A stretch of DNA of 64,000 nt from Clostridia bacterium (GTDB lineage: Bacteria > Bacillota > Clostridia > UMGS1883), in the NCBI GenBank assembly GCA_045545055.1, contig JAZQAB010000070.1, positions 131 through 64,130 on the forward strand, written 5' to 3'. The stretch's first letter is position 1. Each line of letters begins with the position of its first letter. Below, piece after piece: positions 6,747-28,650 of the stretch. The notes under the pieces are model-generated. The model was not told the origin of the DNA. It saw only the letters and a list, made by a program, of their open reading frames with translations, and did no database searches. Position numbers and translations under genes: made by a program.

Positions 6747-6904
6747 CTATTAGTCGCAGATTTTCTGCGACTATACATACTTGCAGTAATATGCGAAAAG
6801 TGATATAATAAGAACAGAAATTTATAAAACTGTATGTCCACAATCATACACAATCACGCTTTTTTATGATATACTTTCTTTAGAATCTAAAGGGAGGCGC
6901 TCTT

Positions 6905-7267
6905 ATGAGCAAGGAAATAAAGAACTATTTTGAGGTCAAGGAAATTTGCAGAAAAGCCACGTCATATTTTATAGGTTCGTTTATCGAATATATAATAGAC
7001 AGGCGTGAAGAATGGGAAAACCCACAAACCAAGAAAATCTTTATCGCAAACTTTCACAAAGAGTTCTTTGATTGGGACAATGAATGTACATTTGAAAGAA
7101 CTCAGAATCGAGTTAATTGTGCTATCCGTCTTATTGAACATCATATGGTAGAAGAAGCTTTAGAATATGTCTTGAATTCAAATGACAAGAAGATGGATAT
7201 TCAAGAAGCGAAAATAAATGCACAAGAAACATTGGATCGTCTTAAATCTGGCGAATTGAAATACTAA
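6905..7267 (+). CDS. hypothetical protein (low-GC cassette gene)
   Basis: GGGAGG RBS upstream. Preceded by promoter TTGCAG-N17-TATAAT at 6781-6809. No family recognised. Confidence 0.55.
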   Translation: MSKEIKNYFEVKEICRKATSYFIGSFIEYIIDRREEWENPQTKKIFIANFHKEFFDWDNECTFERTQNRVNCAIRLIEHHMVEEALEYVLNSNDKKMDIQEAKINAQETLDRLKSGELKY

Positions 7268-7281
7268 GAGGTGAACAAAAA

Positions 7282-7548
7282 ATGAAAAATAGTTTTGAAG
7301 ATTTTCTGATTAAAAAAGGATATAGTCTCAGAACTCCAAGTGGAAATCCAAGCACAGTATACGATTATTTAAAACGTATTGATTTTGTTTGCAAGGTAGA
7401 AAAGACTGACTGGAATGGGTTAGCAAATAACATACAAAATATATTGACTGAATATGAAGAAGGTGGAACAAAAGAACAGTTGGGTGCAAAATCACATAAC
7501 GCTGTAAGATGTGCGTTGCGCTGTTTCAAGGAATTTATAGAAAAATAG
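7282..7548 (+). CDS. hypothetical protein (low-GC cassette gene)
   Basis: GAGGTG RBS, 14 nt after the previous stop. Followed by the terminator at 7563-7596. Confidence 0.55.
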   Translation: MKNSFEDFLIKKGYSLRTPSGNPSTVYDYLKRIDFVCKVEKTDWNGLANNIQNILTEYEEGGTKEQLGAKSHNAVRCALRCFKEFIEK

Positions 7549-7557
7549 GTTGATTAA

Positions 7558-7616
7558 TACATAGCCATTCGTGAGCAATCACGGATGGCTTTTTTATACC
7601 CAAAACAAGAAAGGAG
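7558..7616 (+). repeat. B-type junction element, degenerate copy (terminator hairpin plus RBS)
   Basis: ATAGCCATTCGTGAGCAATCACGGATGGCTTTTTT then CCCAAAACAAGAAAGGAG parallels the copies at 16191, 18160 and 28559. The downstream ATG is followed at once by a stop. Confidence 0.55.
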
Positions 7617-8070
7617 TTTTGAGAATGATATAATATACAAGACTTCTTGGTATTCCGAGTTTTTTACACATGGCGCTGATACTGTACTTATGTCTGCTTG
7701 CAAGAATTATTTTGACTTTCGTGCCATTATCAGCGCCGCTTGTTTTAAAATATCAGCCTCCATTTCGAGTTCCTTTACACGCTTCCTTAGCTCTATCAGC
7801 TCATTTTCCTCAGGCGTTCTGTTATCTTTGGCTCTGAATGAACCTGAATTATTGAAATCTCTCACCCACTTTGTTACACTTGATTTTGCTATTCCATATT
7901 CTTTTGCTACAGAATTTGAGGATTTTCCGCTTTTTACAAGCATTACTATCTGCCTTTTAAATTCGTCTGTATAATTTCTTGTTTTTCCTGACATTTTTAC
8001 CACCTTACCTTTTTTTACTTCTATTATATCATGGCTAAATGTTTTCTGTCCAATTTATTATAACCGATCC
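7617..8070 (-). mobile_element. IS3-family remnant (orfA intact, orfB cut after about 25 codons)
   Basis: After the orfA stop, the minus strand reads KYSISAMCKKLGIPRSLVYY, a typical start of IS3 orfB. It then runs into the B-type element. The upstream end near 8070 is approximate. Confidence 0.6.
7707..8003 (-). CDS. IS3-family transposase OrfA (HTH)
   Basis: MSGKTRNYTDEFKRQIVMLVKSGKSSNSVAKEYGIAKSSVTKWVRDF is a classic IS3/IS150 OrfA helix-turn-helix, followed by a leucine-zipper-like C-terminus. Confidence 0.8.
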   Translation of the reverse strand: MVKMSGKTRNYTDEFKRQIVMLVKSGKSSNSVAKEYGIAKSSVTKWVRDFNNSGSFRAKDNRTPEENELIELRKRVKELEMEADILKQAALIMARKSK

Positions 8071-8309
8071 AATACCTACCTCAAAGAGTTTCGGGAAATT
8101 GAGGAGCAGATCTATGCGATCTGGAAAATTGATATGTTTATCAGGTGGCTTGCTGTTCATGTGCCGAGTAGTGAATCGTAAAACTGCACCAGACAGGCTT
8201 TTGAAATTGCTGCGCCCTGCACAAGAATTATTACAATTCTTCCGATATGCTGGTCTCTGAAATCATTGTCGGCTATAATATAGTTACTATGAAATTGGAG
8301 GTATCAGCT

Positions 8310-8522
8310 ATGTCGAAAACACCTGAATTGGCAATGCCGAGATCACGCAAGGTCACTACCGTGTGCAACAGCAGGCGTGAGGTCTGGACCGACTACGAAG
8401 AAGCGAAAGCGTATTTCCTTGAACTTATGATGTCAACAGACGATGAGAAACATGACCAAGCAGAGTGCGTATATATTCAACTGCTTCACGGGCTGGACGA
8501 GTGCAGTGACGAGAACGAATAA
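8310..8522 (+). CDS. small acidic hypothetical protein
   Basis: ATG at 8310 after a GGAGG RBS. A hairpin terminator follows near 8528-8565. Confidence 0.5.
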   Translation: MSKTPELAMPRSRKVTTVCNSRREVWTDYEEAKAYFLELMMSTDDEKHDQAECVYIQLLHGLDECSDENE

Positions 8523-8775
8523 TGATAGCAGAGGGCTTTGCAGAAATGCAGAGCCTTTTGCTATGCCCTGCCGCGAACGGAAACGTCCCTCACAGCCGTC
8601 TGAGCCTGCGGAGCTGAAAACTAAACGCCGAAAAGAAACAGCCCTGAGAAATGCTTGTATTGCAAATCTCAGGGCTTGTCTGTTATTCAGTTCCACCAAT
8701 AGGGTTTCCGCTGATTTCGGTGCTCGCCATAATCATAATGCGGAACAGAAAGTGAGTCCGCCATTAGGCTATACT

Positions 8776-10851
8776 TTATTTATACAGCAGTTCTCGCTTC
8801 ATCAGACACAGATCAAATACATCTAATCGGTTATCCTTACATAAATTGGCAGCCTGCCATTGTGATAGGTGTGTATCAGGTACAGCAAGAAGCCACTTCT
8901 GTAATAATACAATATCGGCTATATCCAATACGCCGTCACCGTTCACATCGCCTTTAACATAAGTATATGGTTTCCACAAATCGCCAAGCCAATTTTTACG
9001 TTGATTGATGTATTTTCGGACAATATCAACTGAATCCATAAATGTTGCACCACTTGATGAACCGAATACACAGTAAGATGCGCCGCCGTAGGTATGCCAC
9101 CGAGCATTGCTCATCTCTGCCGAGGACTGGATGCTCTCAGCCATTTGCGTGAGATATGGTTTCTCACTTTCGGTCAGTGATTGCAGGAAAGGATCAAATC
9201 GTTCAAAATATATCTCAGCCACACGCTTTACAAAATCTTCATTCTTGTAAAGCTGTCCGATCCAACTGATACCAACAGTCGGGCGCCCGCTGCCCGATGA
9301 GGATGTTTTACCGCCGTCCTCATATCCGTGTATGGGGAAATAGGCGGCAAACAGATTATCAGGCTTGTAGGAATATCCACTATTACCATCTGAATTGATA
9401 CGCTGAGTAGGGAAATTGTTATAGCTGAGGTCAAAATCCCAAGCAGGGCTGAAATGCAGCTTGCCGTCACCGGTGAGGTCAGAATCCTTCCAAAGAAAGA
9501 AGCTGGAATATGTTGCATCAATATTCTCGCTGATCTCCTGCACAAGATAGGCTATGATAAACGAATCCTCGTCAAGATACTCAGTATAGTGCTTTCCTTT
9601 GGCGTTATATCCAGTATCAGAGTATATCGCATCTTCCATATCCTGACCGAAGGAACGGATATACTCGACCTGTTCCTTTGAAGCATATTCTGGTCCGTCT
9701 ATTCCGATTGCCTGTCCTCTTGAGGTTACAAATCCACTCTGACACTTGTGTCCGTATCTGTTCCATTGCTGAAACTGCAAAAGATAACCGCCTGTTATAT
9801 CACCGGGATTATTAGGTATATCATAGTATTTATAGCTGTTTTCCTTATATTCGCCCGCGCTGTCAGCACCAACGACCTTTTGTGCATACCCATCGAGATC
9901 ACGGCTGTTCAACTTCTCCGTCACTTCTTCAAGATCACGGATATTGATACGATTTTTCTGTATCTGTACCCGTTCATAGAGCTGATAAGTGCCACGATAA
10001 GAACCGTCAGCATAAAGATCAACAAAAACAGAATCCATAACACATTCCATTCCTGCTGCCTTGCACATTTCTTCTGTCAGTTTATTCCTAAGCATAGAGT
10101 GATCGAGATAATTCGCCAATAAAGTCCATTTCTTCGCCTTTCCCATACCATAAAGGTTTTCTTTTTGTGGGAGTTTCAGATTATATGGCTTCTTCTTGCT
10201 GTAATCCCATGATGAATTACCGTGAGCAGTAAGTTTCTCATAAGCTCCGCTATACTCAGTGCTACCGTCAGCATTCAGCATGATAGTTGTTCCTGTTTCG
10301 GTAATATTGCGGTTTTCATCAAGTGCATCTGTTCCGCCGTGTGAAGTTGAGAGATAGATACAGCCGATATTGGACTGCATTATTTTCAGTTTACCGCAGT
10401 CTTTATCTCCGACTGTAATCTGAAAGGTATCATCATCACCGAGCAAAGAAGTCGTTTCTCCCGATTTAACAGGCTGCCCGTTGAGATATATCGTATCATC
10501 GGCAGAATATGTGATAACAAGACTATCACGGTCAGCCGTTACGGGAAGAAATATATAGCGGCAATCGTCCCATTCGCTGTACCACCAATCCGTATAATCA
10601 AGGTCTGTCACTATATTGGGAGACAGATTGCTCACTTCAAAAGAAGAAACAGGAATATCGCTGTAATATAATGCATCTGCCTCTGAAAGCCCGTAGCTTT
10701 CCCCTTTTGCCCCGTCAAGTTCTATCAGGTCTTTTGATCTGTCGTATGGTTTATAATCATCAGCATAAGCGATGAAACTGCTATGTGAAAGCAGTCCTAA
10801 AATCGAAACAACCAATCCTGATGCAAGAAAAAATGACTTTATACGCTTCAT
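8776..10851 (-). CDS. secreted CotH-family (kinase-like) protein with C-terminal dockerin
   Basis: Signal peptide. CotH-like core (KKKPYNLKL, KKWTLLANYLDHSMLRNKL). C-terminal GDVNGDGVLDIADIVLLQKWLL ... NLCKDNRLDVFDLCLMKREL dockerin. Confidence 0.78.
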   Translation of the reverse strand: MKRIKSFFLASGLVVSILGLLSHSSFIAYADDYKPYDRSKDLIELDGAKGESYGLSEADALYYSDIPVSSFEVSNLSPNIVTDLDYTDWWYSEWDDCRYIFLPVTADRDSLVITYSADDTIYLNGQPVKSGETTSLLGDDDTFQITVGDKDCGKLKIMQSNIGCIYLSTSHGGTDALDENRNITETGTTIMLNADGSTEYSGAYEKLTAHGNSSWDYSKKKPYNLKLPQKENLYGMGKAKKWTLLANYLDHSMLRNKLTEEMCKAAGMECVMDSVFVDLYADGSYRGTYQLYERVQIQKNRINIRDLEEVTEKLNSRDLDGYAQKVVGADSAGEYKENSYKYYDIPNNPGDITGGYLLQFQQWNRYGHKCQSGFVTSRGQAIGIDGPEYASKEQVEYIRSFGQDMEDAIYSDTGYNAKGKHYTEYLDEDSFIIAYLVQEISENIDATYSSFFLWKDSDLTGDGKLHFSPAWDFDLSYNNFPTQRINSDGNSGYSYKPDNLFAAYFPIHGYEDGGKTSSSGSGRPTVGISWIGQLYKNEDFVKRVAEIYFERFDPFLQSLTESEKPYLTQMAESIQSSAEMSNARWHTYGGASYCVFGSSSGATFMDSVDIVRKYINQRKNWLGDLWKPYTYVKGDVNGDGVLDIADIVLLQKWLLAVPDTHLSQWQAANLCKDNRLDVFDLCLMKRELLYK

Positions 10852-11006
10852 TGTATCCCTCCGTCCTACTTTTATTATACTTTCTCTTGAATATTAAATC
10901 AATAGATTTTATATATCTTCCTATATTTGGAATATGTCAAACTACTTCTATATATTAGACGCATAATTTCTAACAAAACACTAAGTTGTCAACTGATTCG
11001 TATTGA

Positions 11007-11518
11007 TTAGTGTTTATATATTCCAACAATGACTTGACGCTGTGTCCCATCATCGGTGCAGGATATGACCGTAATCCTATTGTCTCCGAAGCCGTTCAGT
11101 ACCCATGTATCATTAGGCTCAACGGTTCTATACTCAGTAACAATATACAGATAACGTGTGCGATTATCATCTGTATCAACGAGATACATCTCATCGCCGA
11201 TCTGAATCTGGTCAAGGTCATTGAATATCTCAGCATATATCGTGCTGTATGTCCTGCAATACAATAGTTGCCCTTGCCGAGTGCGCCTGTTCCCTCAAAA
11301 TGTCCTGCTGATACTTGCAGAGCCTTTGCGTCCGTCCCCTCAAGCACAGGCACGTTGATATTCAAGCGAGGGATCTCGAAGTTTATGTTGCTGTTGAGCA
11401 GTTTACGAAGATATAGCTCTCTGTTGATCCTTTTGTATCCATAGAATGAAAGAATACCGATACCGCATACAATCATGAGAATGCCTATAATCCGAATTAT
11501 CTTTTGCTTCTTTTTCAT
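11007..11518 (-). pseudogene. small sortase, frameshifted (1-nt deletion near 11248)
   Basis: Two overlapping ORFs (11096..11518 and 11007..11264) together align with the intact paralog at 45224..45736. The paralog reads GGACATAACAGCACA where this copy reads GGACATACAGCACG, just after the catalytic His codon. Confidence 0.8.
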
Positions 11519-11572
11519 ATTTCTCCCGATATGAGTGAGAGCGTCACCCGATGAGCGACGCTCCCTTATTAT

Positions 11573-12589: not shown

Positions 12590-12743
12590 AAGATCACCTT
12601 ACCTTTAATTATTTGGATTTATAATTACAGCCAACAAAGCTGAAATCGTTGAAATCATATCATTTTTCAGAATTATGTTGATATTTACAAACGTTTTTAA
12701 CTAATATATCATCTTGTTGGTCATGATACAGAACGTAAAACGC

Positions 12744-14436: not shown

Positions 14437-14481
14437 TTGATTTCCTCCTTCTTGTGATGTGGCATATATGCTTTTTATATA

Positions 14482-14699: not shown

Positions 14700-14984
14700 C
14701 TGTTGATTGGCTCTGCAAGTTGCGGAAATAAGCGACTTCATAACATTCAGGAGGTTGCAGAGTTTATCTGTGAACACGGTCGATATAATGATGTCTGTAT
14801 CAGAACGGAGGATGGTTTTGAGCTTCTGGGAACCTTTGGAATCTATATCAATAAAATCTCGGATATGGAGTACCGTGAGGAACTTCTCAAGGTGCTGATT
14901 CCGATGCAGCATGAAGTAGAAAATGCTGCGTTCTCAAATGATGAGGACATGGACGAAACCGAAGATGTGGATATGACGATGTAA
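14700..14984 (+). pseudogene. 5'-truncated duplicate of the 3' half of gene 6228..6746
   Basis: It aligns with 6489-6746 at the nucleotide and protein level (GNKRLHNIQEVAEFICEHG ... FGIYINKISDMEYREELLKVLIPMQHEVENAAFS ... DVDMTM). It lacks the N-terminal DUF4314-like half and any RBS. Confidence 0.7.
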
Positions 14985-15083
14985 GACGATTGAGGTTGCA
15001 GATTTCTTTTTGAGATCTGCGACCTCATTTCTATTGAAAAATGCGGTGGGATGTGGTATAATATAGGAGGTTGGACAGACCGA
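14964..15083 (+). repeat. A-type junction element copy 1 (gene 3' end, hairpin, promoter, conserved leader)
   Basis: About 93 percent identical by eye to 17401-17518. Hairpin GAGGTTGCAGAT/ATCTGCGACCTC. TTGAAA (15034-15039), N17, TGgTATAAT (15057-15062). Leader ATAGGAGGTTGGACAGACCG. Confidence 0.8.
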
Positions 15084-15109
15084 AAAATAAGAATTAAGGA
15101 GATAATATA

Positions 15110-16069
15110 ATGACTGATTCAAAGAAGAAAGTAATAAAGAAGAAAGTAAAAAAGATACTGCTGATATTTCTTGTTATAGTGACTGTATTCTTATTGTTCA
15201 CCTTTGTACGACACAGAATTATGCTTAAACAGGAGGAAGATTTAGTAAAACCTGTTGGGCAGATGGTCGATATGGACGGTCATAAAATGTGCGTATATAC
15301 CGAGGGTGAAGGCGATAAAACGCTAGTGTTCATGGCAGGTCACGGAACAATCACCCCGATACTTGATTTCAAAAGCATATATCCTCAGCTGACCGATAAA
15401 TACCGTATAGTGGTAGTAGAGAAATTCGGTTACGGATACAGTGAACACGTTAATAAACCGCACGATGTTGATTCGATTCTTGCGGATACGAGAACTGCGC
15501 TTGCGGGTGCGGGTTTGGAAGGACCTTATGTGCTTTGCCCACATTCCTACTCGGGATTAGAGGCATTGTATTGGGCGCAGACCTATCCTGACGAGGTAGA
15601 GGCTATCATCGGGTTGGATATGGCGCTTCCCGAATACTACAATTACACAACTGACGGTACACTTGCTGTGCCGTATTTCAGACTGTTACACGGATTGCTT
15701 GACTTAGGTATAGGCAGATACTTGCCCGATAGTACCTTTCTGCCCTCGGGCGATTTTCTCACGGAGGAAGAACGCAGAACGTGGATAGCGCTTGGCAACC
15801 GCAATTACGCCAACATATCCACCGCAAGAGAAGCCAATATGGCTAAGGATAATGCGGCAGTGGTAGCTTCGGGGGACAAGCCCGATGTCCCGATGCTTAT
15901 GTTTGTAGCCACAGGCATGGGAGATAAGTGGATGGAGGTCAGTTACCGTTTCGCCGAGAATATGCCAAATATAAAGACGATTGAGCTTGATTGTGACCAT
16001 TACATCTTTCACTATGAAGCCGATAAGATGACGGAGGAGATCGGTTTGTTCCTTGATGATCTCGAATAA
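15110..16069 (+). CDS. membrane-anchored alpha/beta hydrolase
   Basis: N-terminal TM. Hydrolase-fold landmarks: LVFMAGHG oxyanion region, nucleophile elbow variant HSYSG, C-terminal DCDHY His. Confidence 0.75.
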   Translation: MTDSKKKVIKKKVKKILLIFLVIVTVFLLFTFVRHRIMLKQEEDLVKPVGQMVDMDGHKMCVYTEGEGDKTLVFMAGHGTITPILDFKSIYPQLTDKYRIVVVEKFGYGYSEHVNKPHDVDSILADTRTALAGAGLEGPYVLCPHSYSGLEALYWAQTYPDEVEAIIGLDMALPEYYNYTTDGTLAVPYFRLLHGLLDLGIGRYLPDSTFLPSGDFLTEEERRTWIALGNRNYANISTAREANMAKDNAAVVASGDKPDVPMLMFVATGMGDKWMEVSYRFAENMPNIKTIELDCDHYIFHYEADKMTEEIGLFLDDLE

Positions 16070-16190
16070 GTACACACTCATATATACATATCACCACGGC
16101 AAGGAGAAACGCTCTCCCTGCCGTTATTTTTATATGACATACACAACGCAATGACAAGACCTATCAGTACCAAAGAAAAAGAAGTAACCA

Positions 16191-16282
16191 AATCCCAATA
16201 TATCGAACTGAATATTATTACATAGCCGTTTGTGACTAACAATCACAGACGGCTTTTTTCATATCCAAAAACGAGAAAGGAG
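16191..16282 (+). repeat. B-type junction element copy 1 (conserved box, terminator hairpin, RBS)
   Basis: AATCCCAATATATCGAACTGAATATTATTACAT, then hairpin AGCCGTTTGTGA/TCACAGACGGCT (16224-16254), T-run, then GAAAGGAG 8 nt before the ATG at 16291. Confidence 0.8.
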
Positions 16283-16290
16283 TTGGTCAG

Positions 16291-17412
16291 ATGATCCGAG
16301 TATTCGACGCTTTTTCGGGTATCGGAGGTTTCCGCAGTGCCTTTGAAAGAGTGGTCGGTTTCAAAACGGTGGGCTGGTGTGAGATTGACCGATTCGCACA
16401 GAAATCCTACCGAGCACTTTTCGACACGGGAGGTGAACAATTTTATGAGAATATCAGAGATATTGACACAGCAGGACTTGCAGATTTTGATCTCCTCGTT
16501 GGAGGTTTTCCTTGTCAGCCATTCTCGGTCGCAGGAAAAAGGCTTGGCACAGCCGATGAACGAGGCGATTTGTTCTTTGAGCTTGCCCGAATCCTTGAAG
16601 CCAAGCGGCCTCGCTATTTTATCTTTGAGAACGTACCCGGACTGCTGGGTATTGAAAAAGGGCAGACTTTCAAAGTCATCCTTGAAACGCTTTCAGAGCT
16701 GGGGTATTGCGTGGAATGGCTTGTGCATGACAGCGCCGGCTTCGGCGTCCCGCAGTCGAGAAAACGAGTGTACCTTGCAGGATGTCTTGGAGTCGATTGT
16801 TCCGGAAAAATACTGGCTTTCGGAAACAGCGACGAGGAAAATAGCCGGAAAGTTAAACAGCTGATCGGCGGTTCACAGGGACAACGAGTGTATGCTCCTG
16901 ACGGATTTGCAGTTACACAATGCAGCGGTTCAGGCGGTATGGGTGGAAAGACGGGATTGTATCTGATAGATATGAATTATCCGCCTACTCTCACGGAAAA
17001 AGCCCGATGTATTACGGCACGTCAGGACAGTGGCGTGAGTAAGCATAAGGGTGAGCATTCAGGAGTACTTGTTGAGGATGGACCGAGAGCCATCCTCAAT
17101 CCATTTAAGGAAGAAGTCTATCAGAACGGCAGGCGTGTGAAAGAACCCAATGAGCCGATGTTTACGCTGACAGTTGTAGACAGGCACGGCATCGTCCATC
17201 AGGGCAGAATCCGCAGACTCATGCCAATTGAGTGCTGGCGACTGCAGGGCTTTACAACTGAGCAGTTCCGTAAGGTAGAAGCCGCAGGACTTTCCGACGC
17301 ACAGCTATACAAGCAGGCTGGCAATGCCGTCACGGTGAATGTGGTCGAGGCACTTGCAAGGAATCTTTTGAAATTTGATGAGGGAATGGATAAACGGGAA
17401 ATGTGGATATGA
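16291..17412 (+). CDS. dcm: DNA (cytosine-5)-methyltransferase (orphan)
   Basis: Motifs FSGIGGF (I), GGFPCQPFS (IV), ENVPGL (VI), QSRKRVY (VIII) and GNAVTVNV (X). No adjacent endonuclease was recognised. Confidence 0.92.
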   Translation: MIRVFDAFSGIGGFRSAFERVVGFKTVGWCEIDRFAQKSYRALFDTGGEQFYENIRDIDTAGLADFDLLVGGFPCQPFSVAGKRLGTADERGDLFFELARILEAKRPRYFIFENVPGLLGIEKGQTFKVILETLSELGYCVEWLVHDSAGFGVPQSRKRVYLAGCLGVDCSGKILAFGNSDEENSRKVKQLIGGSQGQRVYAPDGFAVTQCSGSGGMGGKTGLYLIDMNYPPTLTEKARCITARQDSGVSKHKGEHSGVLVEDGPRAILNPFKEEVYQNGRRVKEPNEPMFTLTVVDRHGIVHQGRIRRLMPIECWRLQGFTTEQFRKVEAAGLSDAQLYKQAGNAVTVNVVEALARNLLKFDEGMDKREMWI

Positions 17413-17518
17413 CGATGTAAGAAAAAGAGGTTGCAGGTATCTTTTGAGATCTGCGACCTCTAATCTATTGAAAAATGCGGTGGGATGTGGTATAATATAG
17501 GAGGTTGGACAGACCGAT
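17401..17518 (+). repeat. A-type junction element copy 2
   Basis: It starts with ATGTGGATATGACGATGTAA, the 3' end of the DUF4314-like gene read in another frame, so dcm terminates inside the repeat. TTGAAA 17468-17473, TATAAT 17491-17496. Confidence 0.8.
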
Positions 17519-17582
17519 AAGAACTTTTAAAGCAGCCTGAAAAATATATTCAGAATGATTAAGTTAACAAAAGGAGAATATT

Positions 17583-18074
17583 ATGAATATTCCAATCAAT
17601 AGCTTAACAAATAAGATAAAAAAGCTTGTAGACTTATGTCAGAAAAACGAATCAGATTACGGTGAAGATTCTTCGTGGTTTAAAGAACCGACACCGAATG
17701 AAATCATTACAAAATGGGAAGATGAACACAATATTTTGATTCCTGAAACATACAAGGAATGGTTATGTTTCACAAATGAAGCACAAATAAGGAATACATT
17801 GGCACATTTTTATGGTCCAGATAAATTTGTTACGAACTCTATGGGTTTATCAGAAGATTTTGTTGTAATTGCAGATTTATCAGGAGATGGTGAGCAGTTA
17901 TGCTTTTCTAAGACAAACGGAAACTTTATTTGGATAGACCATGGCGAGATTGAAACAATATCCGATTTTAGCGATGTTTTAGATGAAATAATTAGAACGC
18001 TTAAGCCCGAAAGCTGTTTATCGCCCAAAATGGAAGAGCTATTAATTAAAATGGCTGAAAAATACAATAAGTAA
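17583..18074 (+). CDS. SMI1/KNR4 (SUKH-1) family protein, immunity-protein-like
   Basis: The pattern WEDEHNILIPETYKEWLCFTNEAQI ... VVIADLSGDGEQLCF resembles SUKH domains. Low-GC single-gene cassette. Confidence 0.55.
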   Translation: MNIPINSLTNKIKKLVDLCQKNESDYGEDSSWFKEPTPNEIITKWEDEHNILIPETYKEWLCFTNEAQIRNTLAHFYGPDKFVTNSMGLSEDFVVIADLSGDGEQLCFSKTNGNFIWIDHGEIETISDFSDVLDEIIRTLKPESCLSPKMEELLIKMAEKYNK

Positions 18075-18159
18075 ATAATGCTTTTGTTGTCGGTAAATTG
18101 TTTGTCAATGTCTTCAACAAAACACTATTTATGGATCAATAATTTTGACTAAATCGCCA

Positions 18160-18255
18160 AATTCCAATATATCGAACTGAATATGATTACATAGCCGTTT
18201 GTGACTAACAATCACAGACGGCTTTTTCTATGCCCAAAACAGAAAAAGAGGAGGT
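18160..18255 (+). repeat. B-type junction element copy 2
   Basis: AATTCCAATATATCGAACTGAATATGATTACAT, hairpin 18193-18223, T-run, then GAGGAGG RBS. Confidence 0.8.
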
Positions 18256-18264
18256 GACACCCGT

Positions 18265-18701: not shown

Positions 18702-19541
18702 ATGAACAGTTTTATGTCATGGGTAGGCGGCAAGAAGTCACTGCGTGATGCAGTGCTTGCAAGATTTCCTCCCTATTATGAACGATATATCGAAGTATTC
18801 GGCGGTGCAGGCTGGGTATTGTTCCATAAGCCGCCCGGCAACGACTTCGAGGTTTACAACGATTTTAACAGCAATCTGGTAAATCTGTACCGCTGTGTCA
18901 GAGATAACCCCAACAAGCTGAAATACAAGCTGAGATATGTCCTTGACTCCCGTCAGGACTTCGAATGGATTGCAAGCCTGCACAAGCGTGGGCTTTTCCC
19001 GAGATTTCGGGATTATGACAGAGCTGCGAAGTTTTATCAGCTTGTCAGATACAGCTATGCAAGCGGGCTTGACAGCTTCGGCAGTCAGCCACATTCTATC
19101 TGGTCGGACTTCCCTATGATAGATATGGCAGCTCGCAGATTGCAAAAGGTTGTGATTGAAAACAAAGACTTTGAAAAGCTCATAAGGCAGTATGACCGCC
19201 CTGTGAGCTTTTTTTATTGCGATCCGCCCTATTTTGCAACGGAGAACTATTACAAGGATGTAGGTTTCACGACGAAAGACCACATCAGACTGCGAGATAC
19301 CTTGCTCAGCATTTCGGGAAAGTTCCTTGTTTCCTACAATGATTGCCCCGAAATCCGTGAGCTGTGGGATAAACCCGGCATCTATATTGAGGAAATCAGC
19401 AGAATCAACAACCTTGCACAGCGATATGACGGCGGATGTCAGTATGCCGAGCTGTTAATTTCAAACTACGACACAAGTGAAAGAGCAAAGATGGCACGTC
19501 AGCTGTCTTTTTTTGATGAGAATGGAGGCTTGATAGAATGA
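18702..19541 (+). CDS. dam: DNA adenine (N6) methyltransferase, Dam/D12 class (orphan)
   Basis: N-terminal SWVGGKKSL. AdoMet motif EVFGGAGWV. Catalytic DPPY in FFYCDPPYFATENYY. Confidence 0.88.
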   Translation: MNSFMSWVGGKKSLRDAVLARFPPYYERYIEVFGGAGWVLFHKPPGNDFEVYNDFNSNLVNLYRCVRDNPNKLKYKLRYVLDSRQDFEWIASLHKRGLFPRFRDYDRAAKFYQLVRYSYASGLDSFGSQPHSIWSDFPMIDMAARRLQKVVIENKDFEKLIRQYDRPVSFFYCDPPYFATENYYKDVGFTTKDHIRLRDTLLSISGKFLVSYNDCPEIRELWDKPGIYIEEISRINNLAQRYDGGCQYAELLISNYDTSERAKMARQLSFFDENGGLIE

Positions 19542-20800: not shown

Positions 20801-20825
20801 CGAAAGAGAAAAGGAGTGAGGCCGA

Positions 20826-21188: not shown

Positions 21189-21249
21189 TCTGCAAAAGAA
21201 AAGCTGTGTAACTTGGTACTAAGGTAGAAGTTTCGGAAAAAGACTGGAT

Positions 21250-21278
21250 TTGCAAAACTTCTTGTGATATGGTATAAT
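21250..21278 (+). promoter_or_regulatory. promoter of the surface/adhesin operon
   Basis: TTGCAA 21250-21255, N17, TGgTATAAT ending at 21278. Confidence 0.5.
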
Positions 21279-21304
21279 TAACCTAATACAAGGAGGACTT
21301 GCAT

Positions 21305-22195: not shown

Positions 22196-22257
22196 AGCGA
22201 AAGAGTCGAGAAATCGGCTCTTTTCTTTTACTCAAATAAAAAAGGAGTGATGCGTGA

Positions 22258-25200: not shown

Positions 25201-26643
25201 TATGCAGGACAGGAAATCGAGGTGAGAGATACAGTGAATCAGGCATTTGTCAATGACTATCAGGAGGTAGAGATTACGCTCTCCAAGTTTATGGAGTACG
25301 ATGAGCAGTTTGCAATCGGAAACAACGGCGAGTATCTCTCTGTACGTTTTGGACTGTTTGCAGATGAAGTTATCACTGCAGCAGACGGCACATCCATTCC
25401 TGCTGACGGCATGATTGCAGAAGTATCTCTCAGTGAAGATATGACTGCAAAGTTCGATGCACAGCTTCCGTTTGGTCGCTACTATGTTCAGGAAATCGCA
25501 ACCGATGAACACTATATGCTTAACGGCGAGAAGTATCTCGTGAATTTTGAGTATATGGGACAGGAAATGACCACAGTCAATATCGACTGCGGTACTTTTG
25601 AAAACCACCTCAAGCGTGGTAATGCCAACGGCTACAAGGTGAACGAGGACGATGAACCCCTTGCCAATGCACTCTTCGGTCTTTTCGCTGTTGGTACAGA
25701 AACATTCAATGTGGATACAGCCATCAAGACTGCCATCTCCGATGAAACAGGCTATTTCGAGTTCACAGAAATCCCTTACGGTGAGTATGTGATCAGAGAA
25801 ATTGCAGCTCCCGACGGATATATTCTCTCGGATAAGCAGTATCCTGTAACAATCAATGAGGACGGCGATACCGTCGAAATCACCGCTGAAAACGAGGCGA
25901 TTACGGTAGAAATCAGCAAGCAGGACATCTACGGTTCAGAGCTTGCAGGTGCAGAGATGCAGCTTGTGGATGAGAACGGCGAAGTCATTGATGAATGGGT
26001 ATCCAATGGTACAAACCATGTCGTAACGGAACTTCCTGTGGGCAAGTACACGCTCAAGGAAACCGCAGCTCCTGACGGATATATCATCGCAACAAACATC
26101 AGCTTCGAAGTATTTGCAGACGGTTCTGTAATTGTTGAGAACGTGGATGCAACTGCAACTACCGAGGATGGACATCCTCTCATTGTAATGGTGGATGATA
26201 CAACCAAGGTGGAAATCAGCAAGCTGGACATCACCAATGATGAGGAACTTGTTGGTGCAACGCTTCAGATTATTGATGAAGATGGTGTCGTAGTGGAAGA
26301 ATGGGTGTCCTATGAGCATCCTCATTTTATTGAGGCACAGCTTATTGCAGGCAAGACCTATACGCTCAAGGAAACCATTGCTCCCGATGGTTATACTATC
26401 GCAAACTCCATTGATTTCACAGTCAATGAGGACGGCACAGTCAACACCGTTGTGATGTATGATGAGCCGATCCCCGATACTCCCGACACACCTACAGGCG
26501 ATACCACAAGCAGACTGCCCGGAATTTTGATGATTGCGGCAGGTCTTGTAATGGTTCTCATTGCAGGTATGGGCAGAAAGAAAAAGGACGATGCTGACGA
26601 ATATGCAGCACTCTGTCCCGACTTTATTGAAAGCGAGGAATAA
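22258..26643 (+). CDS. 1461-aa surface adhesin: NlpC/P60 domain plus many Cna-B/SpaA-type repeats and a C-terminal membrane anchor
   Basis: Signal peptide. NlpC/P60 Cys motif GLDCSGLVYY with downstream HAWIYMG. Repeated motif (A/T)P.GY...(Y/F).V. C-terminal hydrophobic segment plus RKKKDD tail. Confidence 0.85.
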   Translation: MFKNNRIIKKISAGFMAGLCAFSMLGTNLSSTIPANAANVSTTENAAFPSANKVIAQAATLLGTPYNFGFKGFTGVYYQDSYKALDLDFVRNQGLDCSGLVYYTLTHLGYKTSGFSWNNPVPVDTTHWLTVNDNCTISYGGVTSKIDVEKKKISTEERPYWECADGSTITPGSVVVAEMPDSIDHAWIYMGEFNSRADVVTYLKNIGVDESLITSATVGSGSGDGGRHWRIESNGSQGVVINNNTDGKKASVMNMYAYRITQADVTFEITKVLKSDNKVVINGTSPIDGTKAVYGVYTDKACTDKVGEITIGTDGVGSIELPNRQYYVKEISAPTGYSISEEVFALNANQNVFVTEDITSGSIKINKTAEDGILADHEFKLSWVEAGRNCEKTAVTDSNGVAVFNELPVYDLIGKNVISYTISEINVETRYETPKAQNVVLTGGNVDLTVTANFVNELKTGSIRINKQSEDNQNGDRTFTVTGNGETYTITTGADGIAILSYIPVYNSENEKIVYTISEKDVPIRYVVPANQTATLTADATVDVEFENVLKKFTVEVVKKDIEKGTAQGDASLAGAVYGIYNGDELIDTYTTDEYGSFTTHEFECGDSWTIKELTPSEGYLLDSTVYEVGAAEKKYTIENNAIEMTVYETPVKGKISIIKHSDDGTTGIETPEVGAEFEVYLKSAGSYAEAKESERDYLVCDENGFAQTKMLPYGVYVVHQTVGWDNTEWVDDFEVNVCENEEDYFYIINDAVLTSYVKIVKKDAETGNIIPVAGIGFKVWNCDTKSYVVQEIKYPAVTALDTFYTDETGTLMLPNELVYGNYELHEVQSANGYVLDSKPVPFTIDGTVDTVTVEKTNKPQKGKISVQKSGDAFASVTVLGPAIWVDEYGVTHTAGSTTYTPVFKETGLAGAVFEITAAENIVTADGTIRAKKGDVVATLTTDDNGYAESDLLYLGKYEVKEIKAPYGYVQNAVSETVELTYAGQEIEVRDTVNQAFVNDYQEVEITLSKFMEYDEQFAIGNNGEYLSVRFGLFADEVITAADGTSIPADGMIAEVSLSEDMTAKFDAQLPFGRYYVQEIATDEHYMLNGEKYLVNFEYMGQEMTTVNIDCGTFENHLKRGNANGYKVNEDDEPLANALFGLFAVGTETFNVDTAIKTAISDETGYFEFTEIPYGEYVIREIAAPDGYILSDKQYPVTINEDGDTVEITAENEAITVEISKQDIYGSELAGAEMQLVDENGEVIDEWVSNGTNHVVTELPVGKYTLKETAAPDGYIIATNISFEVFADGSVIVENVDATATTEDGHPLIVMVDDTTKVEISKLDITNDEELVGATLQIIDEDGVVVEEWVSYEHPHFIEAQLIAGKTYTLKETIAPDGYTIANSIDFTVNEDGTVNTVVMYDEPIPDTPDTPTGDTTSRLPGILMIAAGLVMVLIAGMGRKKKDDADEYAALCPDFIESEE

Positions 26644-26646
26644 CGC

Positions 26647-27513
26647 ATGAAAAAGAAAACCATTCGCATTCTGGCGGTTGCTGTGGCAGCCGCCCTCCTT
26701 TTTGGAGGTATATATCTGCTTACAAAGGACGATATTGCACAGAAAAAAGCTGAAGGAGATCTTGCACCCTTTATGCCGTCTGTAATTATGCAGGATGCTC
26801 TGGCATATGCACCGACAGAGTCTGTAACGACTACTACAGGTACAAGCACTTCTGAAACGACATCTGAGGAAGGCACAACAAGTTCCACAACATCGGAAAC
26901 TGTTCCAAGTGTGCAGGAAAATGTTCTGTCACCTGAAATTTGTGAAGAACTGAAAGAACAGGCACAGGAACTGCAGGAAACCTATCCCGATGCCATCGGC
27001 TGGATCTATATTCCCGATACAAGCATCAACTACCCGATTATGCAGGGAGAGGACAATGATTTCTATCTTACCCATGGTACGGACGGACACAGTCTGAAAT
27101 GCGGATGTATTGAACTGGATTTCCGCTGTGAAAACCGCTTTCAGAACAACTTCAACATCCTGTACGGCCACAACATGAAGAACGGCTCAATGTTCGCAAA
27201 CGTATGCAGATTCAAGGAAAGAAGCTATTATGACAGTCATCCCTACGGCTGGGTGTATACCTCCGATGCTGTGTACAGACTGGACTTTTTCTCTGTGGCT
27301 GTGACAGATTGGCATGATGAAATCTACAATGGTTTTCGCAGCCTTGACGAATGGACACCGCATCTGAAAGAGATTTCCCGAATCTATGAGGAAGTCGAGC
27401 TGACAGAACAGGACAGGCTTGTACTGCTTTCAACCTGTTCCTATGAATTTGACAATGCCAGAACTGTGCTGATAGGCAGGCTGGTGGAAATGGAGAGTGA
27501 TATGAATGCTTAA
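26647..27513 (+). CDS. srtB: class B sortase
   Basis: N-terminal TM. ILYGHNMKNGSMF His motif. LVLLSTCSY Cys motif. NARTVLIGR Arg. Confidence 0.85.
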   Translation: MKKKTIRILAVAVAAALLFGGIYLLTKDDIAQKKAEGDLAPFMPSVIMQDALAYAPTESVTTTTGTSTSETTSEEGTTSSTTSETVPSVQENVLSPEICEELKEQAQELQETYPDAIGWIYIPDTSINYPIMQGEDNDFYLTHGTDGHSLKCGCIELDFRCENRFQNNFNILYGHNMKNGSMFANVCRFKERSYYDSHPYGWVYTSDAVYRLDFFSVAVTDWHDEIYNGFRSLDEWTPHLKEISRIYEEVELTEQDRLVLLSTCSYEFDNARTVLIGRLVEMESDMNA

Positions 27514-27847
27514 AAAGACCAAAAAGAAAATTGCCGCAACCCTGGCAAGTGCCGTCGCATTCGCTAATATGTTGACGATGCAGGCATATGCGGCAGGCGA
27601 TGTTTCAGGAGCCATCCAGTCCACATGGAATGATGCAAAGTCCCAGATCAAGTCCATTGTGAACAACGTTGTGTTCCCCGTACTGGATGTCGTACTCGTA
27701 ATTCTGCTGTTCGTCAAGATTGGCACGCTCTATATGGAGTATCGCAAGCACGGACAGTTCGAGTGGACGCCGGTGGCAATCATCTTCGGATGTTTGCTGT
27801 TTACGCTGACAGCACCGCTGTATATCTGGAACGTCGTAAACATCTAA
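27506..27847 (+). CDS. Maff2-like small membrane protein (pilin/VirB2 position)
   Basis: Signal-like N-terminus and two TM segments. The position upstream of T4SS genes and the family name are from memory. Confidence 0.55.
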   Translation: MLKKTKKKIAATLASAVAFANMLTMQAYAAGDVSGAIQSTWNDAKSQIKSIVNNVVFPVLDVVLVILLFVKIGTLYMEYRKHGQFEWTPVAIIFGCLLFTLTAPLYIWNVVNI

Positions 27848-27851
27848 CCAC

Positions 27852-27905
27852 AAGCCCGGTTTCCGGGCTTTACATATTGAAGTTTAAAGGAATTTGTGGT
27901 ATAAT
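27852..27905 (+). promoter_or_regulatory. A-like junction: terminator hairpin plus promoter
   Basis: AAGCCCGG/CCGGGCTT hairpin at 27852-27871. TTGAAG 27877-27882, N17, TGgTATAAT ending at 27905. Confidence 0.55.
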
Positions 27906-27954
27906 GAATGAAGCGTTAATAGGCGTACAAATAAGAATTTATAGAGGTGACTAA

Positions 27955-28560
27955 ATGCTAGTTTTATGTTCAAATGGTTTATCAAGTGAAGAAATTTTGG
28001 CATATACAAGAGAAAAGGTAAAATATTGTAAAACGGCTGTATTAGTAGTTACAGCGGATAATGAATATAAGGAAAACAATTATCATGTAGCAAGATGTAT
28101 TTCTGAATTAGAATCATTAAATCTAAAAGTCGATATATTTGACTTGGATAAGCAACCTGCCGAGTTATTATTGGATTATGATGTAGTAGAATTTATTGGA
28201 GGGAATCCATATTACTTATTAAATTCTATCAGAGAACATAATGCAACAGAAGTGTTAAAGGATATTGCTAAAAATAAAGTATTGATTGGTTGGAGTGCGG
28301 CTGCATTCGTTTTTAGTCCTACACTTGAATTGGTAAATTGCTATTCTCCAGAAATGAATTTTTTGAGATTGACGGATTTAAGAGGTCTTTCATTAACACA
28401 AGTCCAAGTGTTGCCTCACTATAATAAATTTCTTTCAAAATTTGATAAGTTTGAAGAAAGATGTTGTGCATATGAAAAAGAGCATAGTGTTAATGTAATT
28501 CGTATAAATGATGGAGACGGAATTTTTATTGATTCGGAAGTTTATATTTGTAAAAATTAA
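27955..28560 (+). CDS. peptidase S51 (dipeptidase E)-like / class I glutamine amidotransferase-like protein
   Basis: FIGGGNPYYLL and the nucleophile-elbow-like LIGWSAAAF. Low-GC single-gene cassette. Confidence 0.55.
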   Translation: MLVLCSNGLSSEEILAYTREKVKYCKTAVLVVTADNEYKENNYHVARCISELESLNLKVDIFDLDKQPAELLLDYDVVEFIGGNPYYLLNSIREHNATEVLKDIAKNKVLIGWSAAAFVFSPTLELVNCYSPEMNFLRLTDLRGLSLTQVQVLPHYNKFLSKFDKFEERCCAYEKEHSVNVIRINDGDGIFIDSEVYICKN

Positions 28561-28645
28561 ATTCCAATTTGTCGAACTGAATATTATTACATAGTCGTCT
28601 GTGATTTCAAATCACAGACGGCTTTTTCTGTCCCCAAAGGAGGTG
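28559..28645 (+). repeat. B-type junction element copy 3
   Basis: AATTCCAATTTGTCGAACTGAATATTATTACAT, hairpin AGTCGTCTGTGAT/ATCACAGACGGCT (28593-28623), T-run, then AAAGGAGG 7 nt before the ATG at 28651. Confidence 0.8.
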
Positions 28646-28650
28646 AAACC

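Follow-up and report, generated by a model that had tools for sequence, protein, structure and literature searches.

Single-gene cassettes framed by a conserved promoter and terminator spacer in an ICE and in tRNA-linked chromosomal arrays of gut Ruminococcus/Oscillospiraceae

An ICE in the window (the whole stretch analysed, 64,000 nucleotides of Clostridia bacterium contig JAZQAB010000070.1) shares a cassette format with the chromosomes of herbivore-gut Ruminococcus/Oscillospiraceae. In each cassette a strong promoter of the sigma-A type, with extended -10, leads into a conserved 5'UTR beginning with GGAGG; an RBS of the cassette's own, one unrelated ORF, a conserved 3' box and an intrinsic terminator follow. 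In this ICE lineage the cassettes are single and intergenic, always placed between one terminator hairpin and the next; in the chromosomes they form head-to-tail arrays directly behind tRNA genes. The promoter module (A) and the box-plus-hairpin module (B) that frame the cargo are the two halves, upstream and downstream, of a single conserved spacer, about 170-190 nt long, that lies between cassettes. The cassettes are probably portable, self-expressed units swapped by recombination at the spacer modules, with the ICE backbone genes expressed by read-through, and the wrapper looks like an undescribed, integrase-less form of gene swapping between chromosomes and mobile elements.

All of these modules lie on the plus strand of the window. 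Module B occurs three times (16190-16260, 18159-18228 and 28559-28628), each time as a box of 33-38 nt followed by a 12-14-bp hairpin and a T-run. The box motif AATTCCAATATATCGAACTGAATATTATTACAT is matched at 16191, 18160 and 28560 with one or two mismatches each, and by none of 100 shuffles; taken as 92-nt repeats, positions 16188-16279, 18157-18248 and 28557-28648 are 100, 90 and 75% identical. B copy 1 (16190-16290) comprises the box (16190-16227), the terminator hairpin (16224-16254), the T-run and the conserved dcm leader with its RBS, and meets its cargo at a joint at 16189/16190. Copy 2 (18159-18264) has its box at 18159-18196 and hairpin at 18193-18223, then a T-run and the RBS of the small ORF heading the dam operon, while copy 3 (28559-28650) has its box at 28559-28596, hairpin at 28593-28623, a T-run and the RBS of the primase gene. 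The RBS and ATG of dcm (16291), the small ORF (18265) and the primase gene (28651) lie 28-40 nt downstream of the stem. On the plus strand 98% of the hairpin cells are paired, with two compensatory and three G-U changes. The preliminary description had typed this hairpin with two perfectly matching arms, a sequence that is absent: the true left arms are AGCCGTTTGTGA or AGTCGTCTGTGA and so give G-U pairs. A fourth right edge (7559-7616) retains only ..ATACATAG (ACATAG), a hairpin (7563-7590) with compensated stem changes, a T-run and an RBS, and lacks the box; where its downstream gene stood, there is now a minus-strand IS3 remnant. The suggested search for further B copies in this genome returned none beyond the three and this hairpin-only relic (7559-7595).

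Module A is present in two clear copies (15008-15086 and 17442-17520), which are 95% identical, carry TTGAAA-17-TATAAT with a TG extension (11/12 matches) and both have the final 20-30 nt of the DUF4314 gene in front of them. Copy 1, at its full extent (14961-15095), holds the last 24 nt of a truncated DUF4314 duplicate, a hairpin (14991-15027), TTGAAA (15034) 17 nt from TATAAT (15062) and the 5'UTR ATAGGAGGTTGGACAGACCGAAAAATAAGAAT, and ends at the left cassette joint, 15095/15096. Copy 2 (17397-17520) holds the DUF4314-tail repeat (17397-17421), a hairpin, TTGAAA (17468), again 17 nt from TATAAT (17496), and the conserved 5'UTR. Because the DUF4314 tail precedes the A copy, dcm terminates inside the repeat in another frame (TGA at 17410-17412), as had been read initially. 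The third left edge is a variant (27853-27954) with a hairpin (27853-27869), TTGAAG (27877) 17 nt from TATAAT (27905) with TG, and a 5'UTR reduced to ..AAATAAGAATTT (27929-27940); its part at 27853-27905 is a diverged homologue of a variant in L018. At the fourth left edge (6751-6809), a hairpin (6751-6773) is followed by TTGCAG (6781-6786), 17 nt and TATAAT (6804-6809) with a TG extension. Its -35 has only 3/6 matches, under the threshold of the promoter scanner, and the conserved GGAGGTYGGACAGAC 5'UTR is missing, which makes it a layout analogue and not a clear A copy. The four identically framed cassettes first described thus come down to three box and hairpin copies and two promoter modules (95% identical), whereas the fourth right edge is a relic and the fourth left edge agrees in layout only.

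The cargo is as originally listed: two small ORFs of 120 and 88 aa that match no Pfam family (6905-7548), an alpha/beta hydrolase of 319 aa (15110-16069) with its own terminator-like hairpin at ~16095-16123, an SMI1/KNR4 (SUKH-1) protein of 163 aa (17583-18074) and an S51 peptidase-like protein of 201 aa (27955-28560), whose TAA stop overlaps the box start. The backbone gene dcm (C5 cytosine methyltransferase, 16291-17412) has its last codons within the repeated DUF4314 tail. The GC content of the three small cassettes is low, at 0.34-0.38 against about 0.46-0.50 in the backbone, but the hydrolase cassette, also described as low-GC, is not clearly so (0.41-0.46).

A census of the window and about 35 loci gives 42 promoter/UTR modules and 41 boxes. 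The spacer runs from the 3' box through an optional 34-nt extension, a GC hairpin with T-run and a TTGCAA/TTGAAA-17-TGnTATAAT promoter to the 5'UTR ATAGGAGGTYGGACAGACCGAWAAATAAGAATTTG. Cargo joins the box at the same nucleotide (±1) in 39 of the 41 boxes and the 5'UTR at ..AAGAATTTG in 36 of the 42 modules; the box often supplies the TAA stop of the cassette, and it completes the stop codon in 10 of the 30 boxes scored. In Ruminococcus/Oscillospiraceae MAGs, tandem arrays of single, mutually unrelated genes have this spacer between one gene and the next. MAGs are the source of most loci, and many of the arrays reach a contig end; each of the six visible array starts comes immediately after a tRNA gene, at its CCA end, and four different tRNA species are involved. 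Modules are dispersed over many contigs per genome, and at least five unrelated hairpins follow the box, at distances of 0-45 nt, also in chromosomal arrays without an ICE. With the three cassettes that L016 and L035 share as one array set apart, only five related cargo pairs (E<1e-10) occur among the cassettes recovered. The Pfam spectrum of the cargo includes GNAT (six), AAC(3) (three), glyoxalase, methyltransferases, NUDIX, S51 and many unknowns, and some of it is resistance-type.

Closely related ICEs with different cargo and breakpoints at the module edges support cassette exchange, in line with the initial proposal. Unrelated cargo occupies the junctions at dcm, the dam operon and the primase gene in eleven related elements, and homology breaks at 15095-15101 and 16189-16190, or at 28552-28558. 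The alignment of related ICEs proposed as a check shows such junction polymorphism: the window and L026 are 96.6% identical up to 15095 and 95.1% identical from 16189, with unrelated DNA between, a pattern repeated in L014, L005, L029, L030, L018, L008, L025, L031, L009 and L069. Metagenome contigs branch at 15095, 16188-16190, 16230 and 16257. The modules that bound cargo in the ICEs also build the chromosomal arrays, which takes the exchange beyond what was first proposed. The S51 cassette has a counterpart in L017 as the first cassette behind tRNA-Pro, where the ORF is 75% and the box 100% identical; the higher conservation of the box than of the adjacent coding sequence points to some function of the box itself. 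An AAC(3) block common to an ICE and a chromosomal array is 97.6% identical over 1228 nt and ends at the 3' end of the box (..CATAGCC). An orthologous chromosomal locus, running from tRNA-Gln to GNAT, contains four cassettes in one genome and two different ones in another. Alternative joints comprise mid-box joints in L009, L069 and L018 and a case in which the dcm 5' end is fused to a promoter at a microhomology, and mosaic identity within a cargo gene fits homologous exchange.

The closest described analogue is the promoter-early stem-loop (PeSL) regulatory cassettes of T4-type phages (Arbiol et al. 2010, PMC2839356; Comeau et al. 2014, PMC4122927). In both systems, small non-essential genes alternate with a repeated composite of terminator stem-loop and strong sigma-70-type promoter, which bounds insertions, deletions and replacements between close relatives and makes each gene an insulated transcription unit. 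PeSL motifs are found in phage hyperplastic regions, whereas the cassettes described here occupy an ICE and bacterial chromosomes behind tRNA genes; their spacer is longer, adding the conserved 5'UTR and the 38-nt 3' box, and the cargo joint is nucleotide-exact. With PeSL as a model, the spacers would be stretches of portable homology: exchange within the box and on the 5'UTR side would swap, duplicate or delete cargo while leaving the neighbours intact, and would also move cassettes from chromosomal arrays to ICEs or back. Homologous recombination can account for the shuffling of cassettes that already exist but leaves the exact-nucleotide joining of dozens of unrelated ORFs to the box unexplained; the box, at only 38 nt, is short for RecA-dependent exchange, and its conservation above that of the adjacent coding sequence also speaks against this reading.

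Site-specific gene capture resembling that of integrons is a rather unlikely alternative. A recombinase encoded elsewhere, by the host or the ICE, would act on the palindromic box start (CAAATT-CC-AATTTG), and perhaps on the similar TAAATAAGAATTTG with which the 5'UTR ends, inserting and excising units of RBS and ORF; a cut within YAAATTCCAATTTG would be expected, and the platforms would be tRNA 3' ends and sites close to terminators. The single-nucleotide joint whatever the cargo, the stop codons completed by the box, the excess of box over ORF conservation, the anchoring of arrays at CCA ends of four tRNA species and the switch between ICE-type and array-type contexts exactly at ..CATAGCC all speak for it. 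As in integrons/CALINs (IntI, attI, attC cassettes), the cassettes are compact, hold one ORF each and all point the same way in the stack, the site is fixed while its cargo is hypervariable, stop codons frequently overlap the 3' site, and the repertoire (GNAT, aminoglycoside acetyltransferase, glyoxalase, many unknowns) is typical of integron cassettes. However, no recombinase lies beside any array, where the neighbours are housekeeping genes; the only tyrosine recombinase of the window ICE belongs to an hsdS shufflon, and the serine recombinase is located where the element ends. Neither IntI nor an attC-like single-strand fold or folded palindrome was found in the cassettes, and no empty sites were found among the loci. 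Unlike in integrons, the 3' site is highly conserved in sequence, each cassette has its own promoter and terminator, and arrays begin at tRNA genes. The alternative joints and the mosaic identity within one cargo gene also count against site-specific capture, and the likeness of the two flanking motifs is not significant given the number of registers searched.

In the ICE, cargo would be transcribed from its own promoter up to the B hairpin. As first stated, no promoter fits between the B hairpins and the backbone start codons. A hairpin with T-run also stands 20-35 nt 5' of dcm in 13 of 15 distinct cassette-free ICE relatives, with at least six different stems and no box; since these relatives keep it, the terminator upstream of promoterless dcm is ancestral, and the B hairpin would be the backbone's own inter-cistronic terminator. 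Promoterless backbone genes would then be reached only by polymerases reading through from the main promoter of the element, with processive antitermination across the whole operon as the most plausible means. Gram-positive conjugation operons have an established read-through of internal terminators, by conAn in pLS20 (PMC8191782, PMC8955417) and canT in Tn916 (PMC11658703), where canonical intrinsic terminators likewise lie 5' of promoterless conjugation and DNA-processing genes. In pLS20, transcripts from a constitutive internal promoter end at the next internal terminator, giving differential expression (PMC8191782, PMC8955417), and the cargo cassettes would by analogy behave alike. In contrast with pLS20 and Tn916, neither a homologue of ConAn1 nor an RNA resembling canT, nor any other antitermination factor, was found in this case, and those two systems do not include the repeated box; a profile search for the antitermination factor PF17362 gave no match, nor did it in control genomes.

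The preliminary description went further and took box and hairpin together as a conditional terminator or antitermination site, which would put dcm, the dam operon and the primase/T4CP operon under the control of ICE regulators. Three copies 28-40 nt 5' of three promoterless backbone units, the canonical form of the B terminators, and the sigma-r4-like protein and LexA-like repressor encoded by the ICE agree with such a role, which is nevertheless very improbable. The hairpin occurs without the box in the cassette-free relatives, and the box travels with the cassettes and stands next to unrelated hairpins in chromosomal arrays with no ICE gene nearby. In folding, the box alone is unstructured, with neither a stable nor an alternative fold, no alternative pairing between it and the terminator arm was found, and it matched no Rfam family. 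Known antitermination in such elements acts from the operon start and not terminator by terminator (PMC8955417, PMC11658703).

It is equally hard to credit that the units are mobile insertion cassettes lacking a transposase (MIC/MITE-like), which a hairpin-targeting IS transposase such as that of the IS1182 family would mobilise in trans: a terminator hairpin abuts both sides of every unit, the locus-end hairpin of L038 is repeated 3' of cassettes 1 and 2, and modules spread across many contigs, yet no unit is bounded by terminal inverted repeats or shows a target duplication (the two hairpins flanking a unit are not alike in sequence, and no second copy of the tRNA tail occurs), and every unit has the orientation of the tRNA gene upstream or of the ICE operon.

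Two further systems resemble the cassettes in part. SXT/R391 ICE hotspots also hold cargo at fixed intergenic backbone positions with sharp boundaries common to relatives; to our knowledge, they have no repeated promoter and terminator wrapper and their inserts are multi-gene, unlike the cassettes here. The recombinase-associated immunity-gene arrays of Bacteroidales (rAID-1; Ross et al., bioRxiv 10.1101/471110) are likewise low in GC and found in gut bacteria, with small genes in one orientation and repetitive intergenic sequence between them, and one cargo gene of the window is of the SUKH/SMI1 immunity type. In contrast with rAID-1, no XerD-like recombinase heads the present arrays, the hosts are Firmicutes, the cargo consists mostly of small-molecule-modifying enzymes and not of immunity genes, and the modules are also used inside an ICE.

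Single genes in the window and at related loci are carried as units of one anatomy: the cargo is hypervariable, the joints are common, the units are present both in arrays anchored at tRNA genes and in integrative and conjugative elements (ICEs), and breakpoints between relatives fall at the module edges. In the case of the window, the units lie in a Firmicutes ICE that adjoins a tRNA gene (4721-4793). This ICE encodes DUF6329 and DUF4314 proteins, the backbone orphan C5 methyltransferase dcm (16291-17412), a D12 adenine methyltransferase (18702-19541), a YodL/DUF3846 protein, a SpaA-repeat adhesin with its sortase, a DUF3852 protein, a Toprim primase (28651), a T4 coupling protein (30131), TrbL, a VirB4-like ATPase, a MobL relaxase, a LexA-like S24 repressor (57379-57993) with a MazF/PemK toxin (60611-60958), a sigma-r4-like protein and, at its far end, a serine recombinase.

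The preliminary description placed each cargo gene between a left-edge module, A (hairpin and promoter), and a right-edge module, B (conserved box, hairpin, T-run and RBS). The 33-nt box is indeed present three times in the window with 1-2 mismatches, and shuffled sequences contain no match. Box, hairpin, T-run and leader make up a family of 92-nt repeats (16188-16279, 18157-18248 and 28557-28648), and a genome-wide search found no further B copy elsewhere in the 2.43 Mb. A degenerate fourth B (7559-7616) retains the last box bases, hairpin, T-run and RBS and nothing else; two stem positions of its hairpin are altered, both with compensation. The B hairpin does not occur in exactly the form first written down. 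Its pairing is seen in 98% of cells, with two compensatory and three G-C/G-U changes, and the latter fit only RNA of the plus strand, so the hairpin has been maintained. On the left, two copies of the promoter module (15008-15086 and 17442-17520) are 95% identical, each reading TTGAAA-17-TATAAT with a TG extension. Both A copies are accompanied by the last 20-30 nt of the DUF4314 gene, and because they bring this tail along, the end of dcm lies inside the repeat. Two further left edges had been proposed: the one at 27853-27905 is a diverged A relative (TTGAAG-17-TATAAT), whereas the one at 6751-6809 is alike in layout only. The cargo identities (two small unknowns, an alpha/beta hydrolase, a SUKH/SMI1-like protein and an S51 peptidase-like protein) are confirmed; the low GC ascribed to the cargo is not clear for the hydrolase cassette.

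A further terminator-like hairpin (16093-16125; ACGGCAAGGAG..CTCCCTGCCGT and a T-run) belongs to the hydrolase cassette itself and lies ∼65 nt before the box, so this cargo brought extra 3' sequence with it, unlike most cassettes. A promoter-like signal on the minus strand is also seen inside B modules (28583-28610 and 16214-16242), with an extended -10 (TGTAATAAT) in the box and a -35, TTGAAA or TTGTTA, in the hairpin loop (10/12 and 9/12 matches). Such a signal would give RNA antisense to the cargo; its conservation among box variants is incomplete.

When one genome per species was scanned, the box turned up on 28 contigs. They belong to MAGs of Ruminococcus, Oscillospiraceae and a few further Clostridia, for the most part from ruminant guts. 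The left border of the box is razor-sharp (YAAATYCCAAT), and the sequence upstream differs at every locus. Beyond the 3' end of the box, ..ATTACATAGCC, there are two kinds of context: (i) the window's own arrangement, with the hairpin and then the RBS of dcm, the primase gene or the dam-operon leader, all of them ICE backbone genes, and (ii) a conserved 34-nt extension (ATTTTAATGTCATCTATTCTGAGCAAGACAGACA), a variable GC hairpin with T-run, and a promoter and 5'UTR which are the A module itself. The two modules are thus halves of a single spacer of ∼170-190 nt, which begins at one gene's stop codon and stops just short of the following gene's RBS. Its order is box, optional extension, terminator, TTGCAA/TTGAAA-17-TGnTATAAT and ATAGGAGGTYGGACAGACCGAWAAATAAGAATTTG, and the promoter precedes each listed cassette; in a shorter box variant, AAATTCCAATTTATCCAACTAAACA, the hairpin follows directly.

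The joints of the cassettes are the start of the box on the 3' side and ..AAGAATTTG, at the end of the 5'UTR, on the other. Of 41 boxes, 39 resemble the consensus from position 0 or 1 onwards, and 36 of 42 modules extend to ..AAGAATT(TG), after which the RBS is specific to the cassette. The first two A's of the box complete the TAA stop of the cargo in 10 of the 30 boxes scored. The box is combined with at least five unrelated hairpins, at distances of 0-45 nt, including on chromosomes without nearby ICE genes. Spacer similarity within a locus is only 0.65 against 0.60, too small a difference to speak for concerted evolution or against it. A minimal spacer is found in one locus (L027, minus strand, ∼2352-2400), where 20 nt from the start of the box run straight into the final 21 nt of the 5'UTR (..GAAC followed by AGTTAGGAAAATAAGAATTTG), which leaves the next gene without a promoter of its own.

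In chromosomes, the units form tandem arrays of two to five (loci L016/L035, L013, L037, L038 and L039) flanked by housekeeping genes: SpoIVA, SipL, a ClpB-type ATPase, GH43, a DegT aminotransferase, an aldo-keto reductase, a DAG kinase and a glycosyltransferase, with tRNAs and a GNAT also among the neighbours. All six arrays that start inside their contig have the first unit directly after the CCA end of a tRNA (Gln-CTG and Gln-TTG twice each, Tyr and Pro); these arrays, L038 (5600-8020, minus strand), L037, L039, L033, L034 and L017, carry no integrase. L038 and L039 are one chromosomal locus in two genomes, with flanks 94.6% and 86.6% identical; the former holds four cassettes and the latter two, and the likeness between them is confined to the spacers. 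In one genome, G001, modules lie on at least twelve contigs; of 301 genomes sampled from its family, 10 have them. Among 64 genomes of the window's own family, the ICE dcm occurs in the window's genome only, and modules are absent apart from this ICE.

Exchange of cassettes at the modules, as had been proposed, is supported by near ICE relatives, which hold different cargo at the same backbone junctions; the same cargo without junction polymorphism is clearly not the pattern found. Upstream of dcm lie an alpha/beta hydrolase (window), a GNAT (L005, L018), a deaminase-like protein (L030) or unknowns (L014, L029), and upstream of the primase gene an S51 peptidase (window), an AAC(3) (L008), an AAA_33 kinase-like protein (L025) or a SAM methyltransferase (L031). 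Aligned to L026, the window shows 96.6% identity as far as 15095 and 95.1% from 16189 onwards; the DNA between is unrelated. In the other relatives homology breaks off at 15095-15101 and 16189-16190, or at 28552-28558. L009 and L069 have a mid-box right joint at the dam-operon site, and L018 has a similar one at a truncated-dcm site. The branch points of contigs from metagenome runs, of DNA and of RNA, coincide with these breakpoints; the metatranscriptome runs are assembly contigs, which break at repeat borders and carry no 5'/3' end information.

Two cassettes occur in ICE and array contexts alike. The window's S51 gene recurs in L017, where it heads the array behind tRNA-Pro (ORF 75%, box 100% identical), and the AAC(3)-type aminoglycoside N-acetyltransferase that precedes the ICE primase gene in L008 (278-1096) recurs in an array-type context in L015 (638-1474, minus strand). 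The block is 97.6% identical over 1228 nt, and its similarity stops at the 3' end of the box, ..CATAGCC. The GNAT cassette common to L019 and L036 is ∼80% identical in its 5' part and ∼100% in its 3' 300 nt, a mosaic of the kind produced by homologous exchange. In a separate rearrangement, a promoter of A type has been joined at the microhomology TTTCGGGC to 29 nt from the start of dcm. It is seen in L018 (minus strand, ∼7140-7290), in L030 and in one contig of a DNA metagenome run, where window position 16319 is joined to 17485; the truncated dcm start is thereby now part of a spacer variant.

The box and hairpin had also been suggested to act as a conditional terminator or antitermination site. 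This idea is not supported, since the hairpin predates the cassette and the box also occurs with other hairpins. Among 80 metagenome loci encoding dcm relatives (43-86% identity), modules are found only in the closest, L069. In relatives that lack the cassette, a hairpin of 10-14 bp and a T-run of 6-8 come after the DUF4314 stop, and the dcm ATG stands ∼20-35 nt beyond. The hairpin and T-run layout holds in 13 of 15 distinct cassette-free spacers, with at least six unrelated stems, and the remaining two have a hairpin without T-run. The leader after the hairpin (..ATCCAAAAAGAAAGGAATGGTCAGATG) is homologous in these relatives to the leader after the window's B hairpin. A terminator ahead of the promoterless dcm is therefore an ancestral feature of the backbone, and the promoter-to-box cassette was inserted in front of it. 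No alternative (antiterminator) pairing was found: MFE and centroid structures retain the terminator and leave the box unpaired or weakly paired. The box has no stable fold, and an Rfam search with it returned no family.

A hairpin with T-run precedes dcm, the dam-operon leader ORF and the primase gene, at a position conserved across relatives and with stems that differ. Gram-positive conjugation operons have many internal terminators (conAn of pLS20, PMC8191782, PMC8955417; canT of Tn916, PMC11658703). Polymerases that have undergone a single modification, where the operon begins, pass through these terminators, which also halt transcripts of internal constitutive promoters (same sources). 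The ICE has the same trait of multiple intrinsic terminators in its conjugation/DNA-processing operon, and antitermination at the operon start would fit this arrangement better than a switch at each site. A profile search for ConAn1 (PF17362), which conAn-type systems encode at the head of the operon, gave no match in the genome, and control genomes were likewise silent.

The spacers may provide portable homology for exchange, as do the PeSL motifs that serve gene exchange in T4-type phages (PMC2839356, PMC4122927). The A promoter would drive the cargo constitutively, and the terminators would insulate it. In PeSL systems a repeated terminator stem-loop and a sigma-70-type promoter lie between small accessory genes, as they do here, and in both, where close relatives differ by a gene replacement or an indel, the motif marks its borders. 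PeSL-type cassettes also give rise to circular molecules when neighbouring motifs recombine. The cassette system appears to work like PeSL cassettes, and its population behaviour also resembles that of integron and rAID-1 arrays (bioRxiv 10.1101/471110). The cassettes lack defining properties of integrons, rAID-1, MICs and tRNA-integrating islands, and a full-text literature search found no description of such cassettes for Ruminococcus or ICEs.

A broader reading, which we regard as doubtful, is that gut Ruminococcus/Oscillospiraceae possess a gene-capture platform of their own, equivalent in function to the integron, made of different parts and sampled by ICEs. Self-promoted and self-terminated cassettes would be joined at a ∼38-nt site with the palindromic core CAAATT-CC-AATTTG, and a recombinase encoded away from the array would stack them behind tRNA genes. 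ICEs would sample array cassettes, including aminoglycoside-acetyltransferase-type genes, and ferry them between species. The site-specific, integron-like mechanism itself is unlikely; it stays alive because unrelated ORFs are joined to the box at one exact nucleotide, the box is conserved more than the neighbouring coding sequence and the arrays begin at tRNA 3' ends. However, no recombinase gene was seen in the array flanks examined, empty slots (promoter/UTR directly onto box) were found neither in any locus nor in the genome, and an attC-like fold and terminal repeats were likewise not found. Integrons have an IntI-type tyrosine recombinase, with attI and Pc, at the array, whereas the sole tyrosine recombinase of the ICE (53799-54602, minus strand) lies beside hsdS; they also have attC, an imperfect palindrome at the 3' end of every cassette that folds as a single strand and is lacking here, and promoterless cassettes behind a common promoter, whereas each listed cassette here has its own. 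Compact single-gene cassettes and variable content at one locus are common to both. In rAID-1 a XerD-like recombinase gene stands at the 5' end of the array, whereas the arrays here start at tRNA genes. tRNA-integrating islands have an integrase and a distal direct repeat of the tRNA 3' end; the arrays have neither, and a search of six loci turned up no repeat of the final 16-24 nt of the tRNA at the far end. A MITE/MIC model, with terminal inverted repeats and target-site duplication, is rejected: no such repeats bound the units, the flanking hairpins differ and the tRNA tail is not repeated.

Several other identities of the box were considered, and most of them set aside. As an attC-like element, box plus extension folds as DNA no better than shuffles (z = +0.4 and +0.5 for the two strands), and the only folding in the box/extension/terminator region is the GC terminator stem; the long palindrome of the short-box variant is just the A-tract and T-tract of a bidirectional terminator. 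Box plus extension is not tRNA-like (z -1.9 to 2.1 against adjacent tRNAs) and has not even a weak Rfam tRNA match; as the tRNA tail has no distal repeat either, a decayed tRNA or tRNA-tail att site is rejected. Xer/dif modules of pdif type have a 28-bp dif-like XerC/XerD site at their borders; the box agrees with B. subtilis dif at 13 of 28 positions, the chance level, and no host dif site was identified for comparison. In the candidate ECF-sigma promoter GAAC-N18-CGT, the CGT falls in the hairpin arm and is missing wherever the 34-nt extension follows; it is rejected as a conserved feature. A Spo0A box (TGTCGAA) is rejected too, with key positions that vary among copies (TATCGAA, TATAAAA, TACCGAA, TGCCGGA). 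The consensus box holds TAA, TGA and TAG in three frames; the first is lost from 15 of the 41 copies, those starting with C, so a three-frame stop is not a conserved property. UACAU, the B. subtilis MazF cleavage motif, is present in the box of an ICE encoding MazF, and may well be a chance match.

Only five pairs of related cargo were found among the recovered cassettes, besides three common to L016 and L035, which are the same array. A scan of 41 cargo ORFs gave six GNAT acetyltransferases, three AAC(3)-type aminoglycoside acetyltransferases, two S51 peptidases and proteins of glyoxalase/bleomycin-resistance type, methyltransferase, NUDIX, FMN reductase, TfoX_N and HTH families; many of the ORFs have no family. 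Classical integrons are rare in gut Firmicutes. Exchange through spacer homology, if true, would give single accessory genes a simple and general way of being equipped with standard expression signals, so that GNAT, AAC(3)-type and other drug-modifying-type enzymes could be traded between chromosomal arrays and conjugative elements of gut Firmicutes. It would also offer a concrete example on which to test the long-standing question of how exact-boundary cassettes originate. With a promoter ahead and a terminator after, constitutive cargo could be held in a tightly controlled ICE operon without disturbing it. The spacer is also a handy annotation marker for hypervariable loci in these genomes.

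Elsewhere in the ICE, type I R-M specificity genes adjoining the tyrosine recombinase contain repeated segments (52169/52982, 52851/53676 and 55136/55940), and the region (52169-55980) resembles an hsdS shufflon. The DUF4314 gene has its 3' half in two copies (6495-6737 and 14709-14951, 81% identity), and between them lies an 8-kb block on the opposite strand with an IS3 remnant, CotH-dockerin and LPXTG proteins, a sortase and an ECF sigma factor; this block is a second, different cargo-loading route at the same spot.
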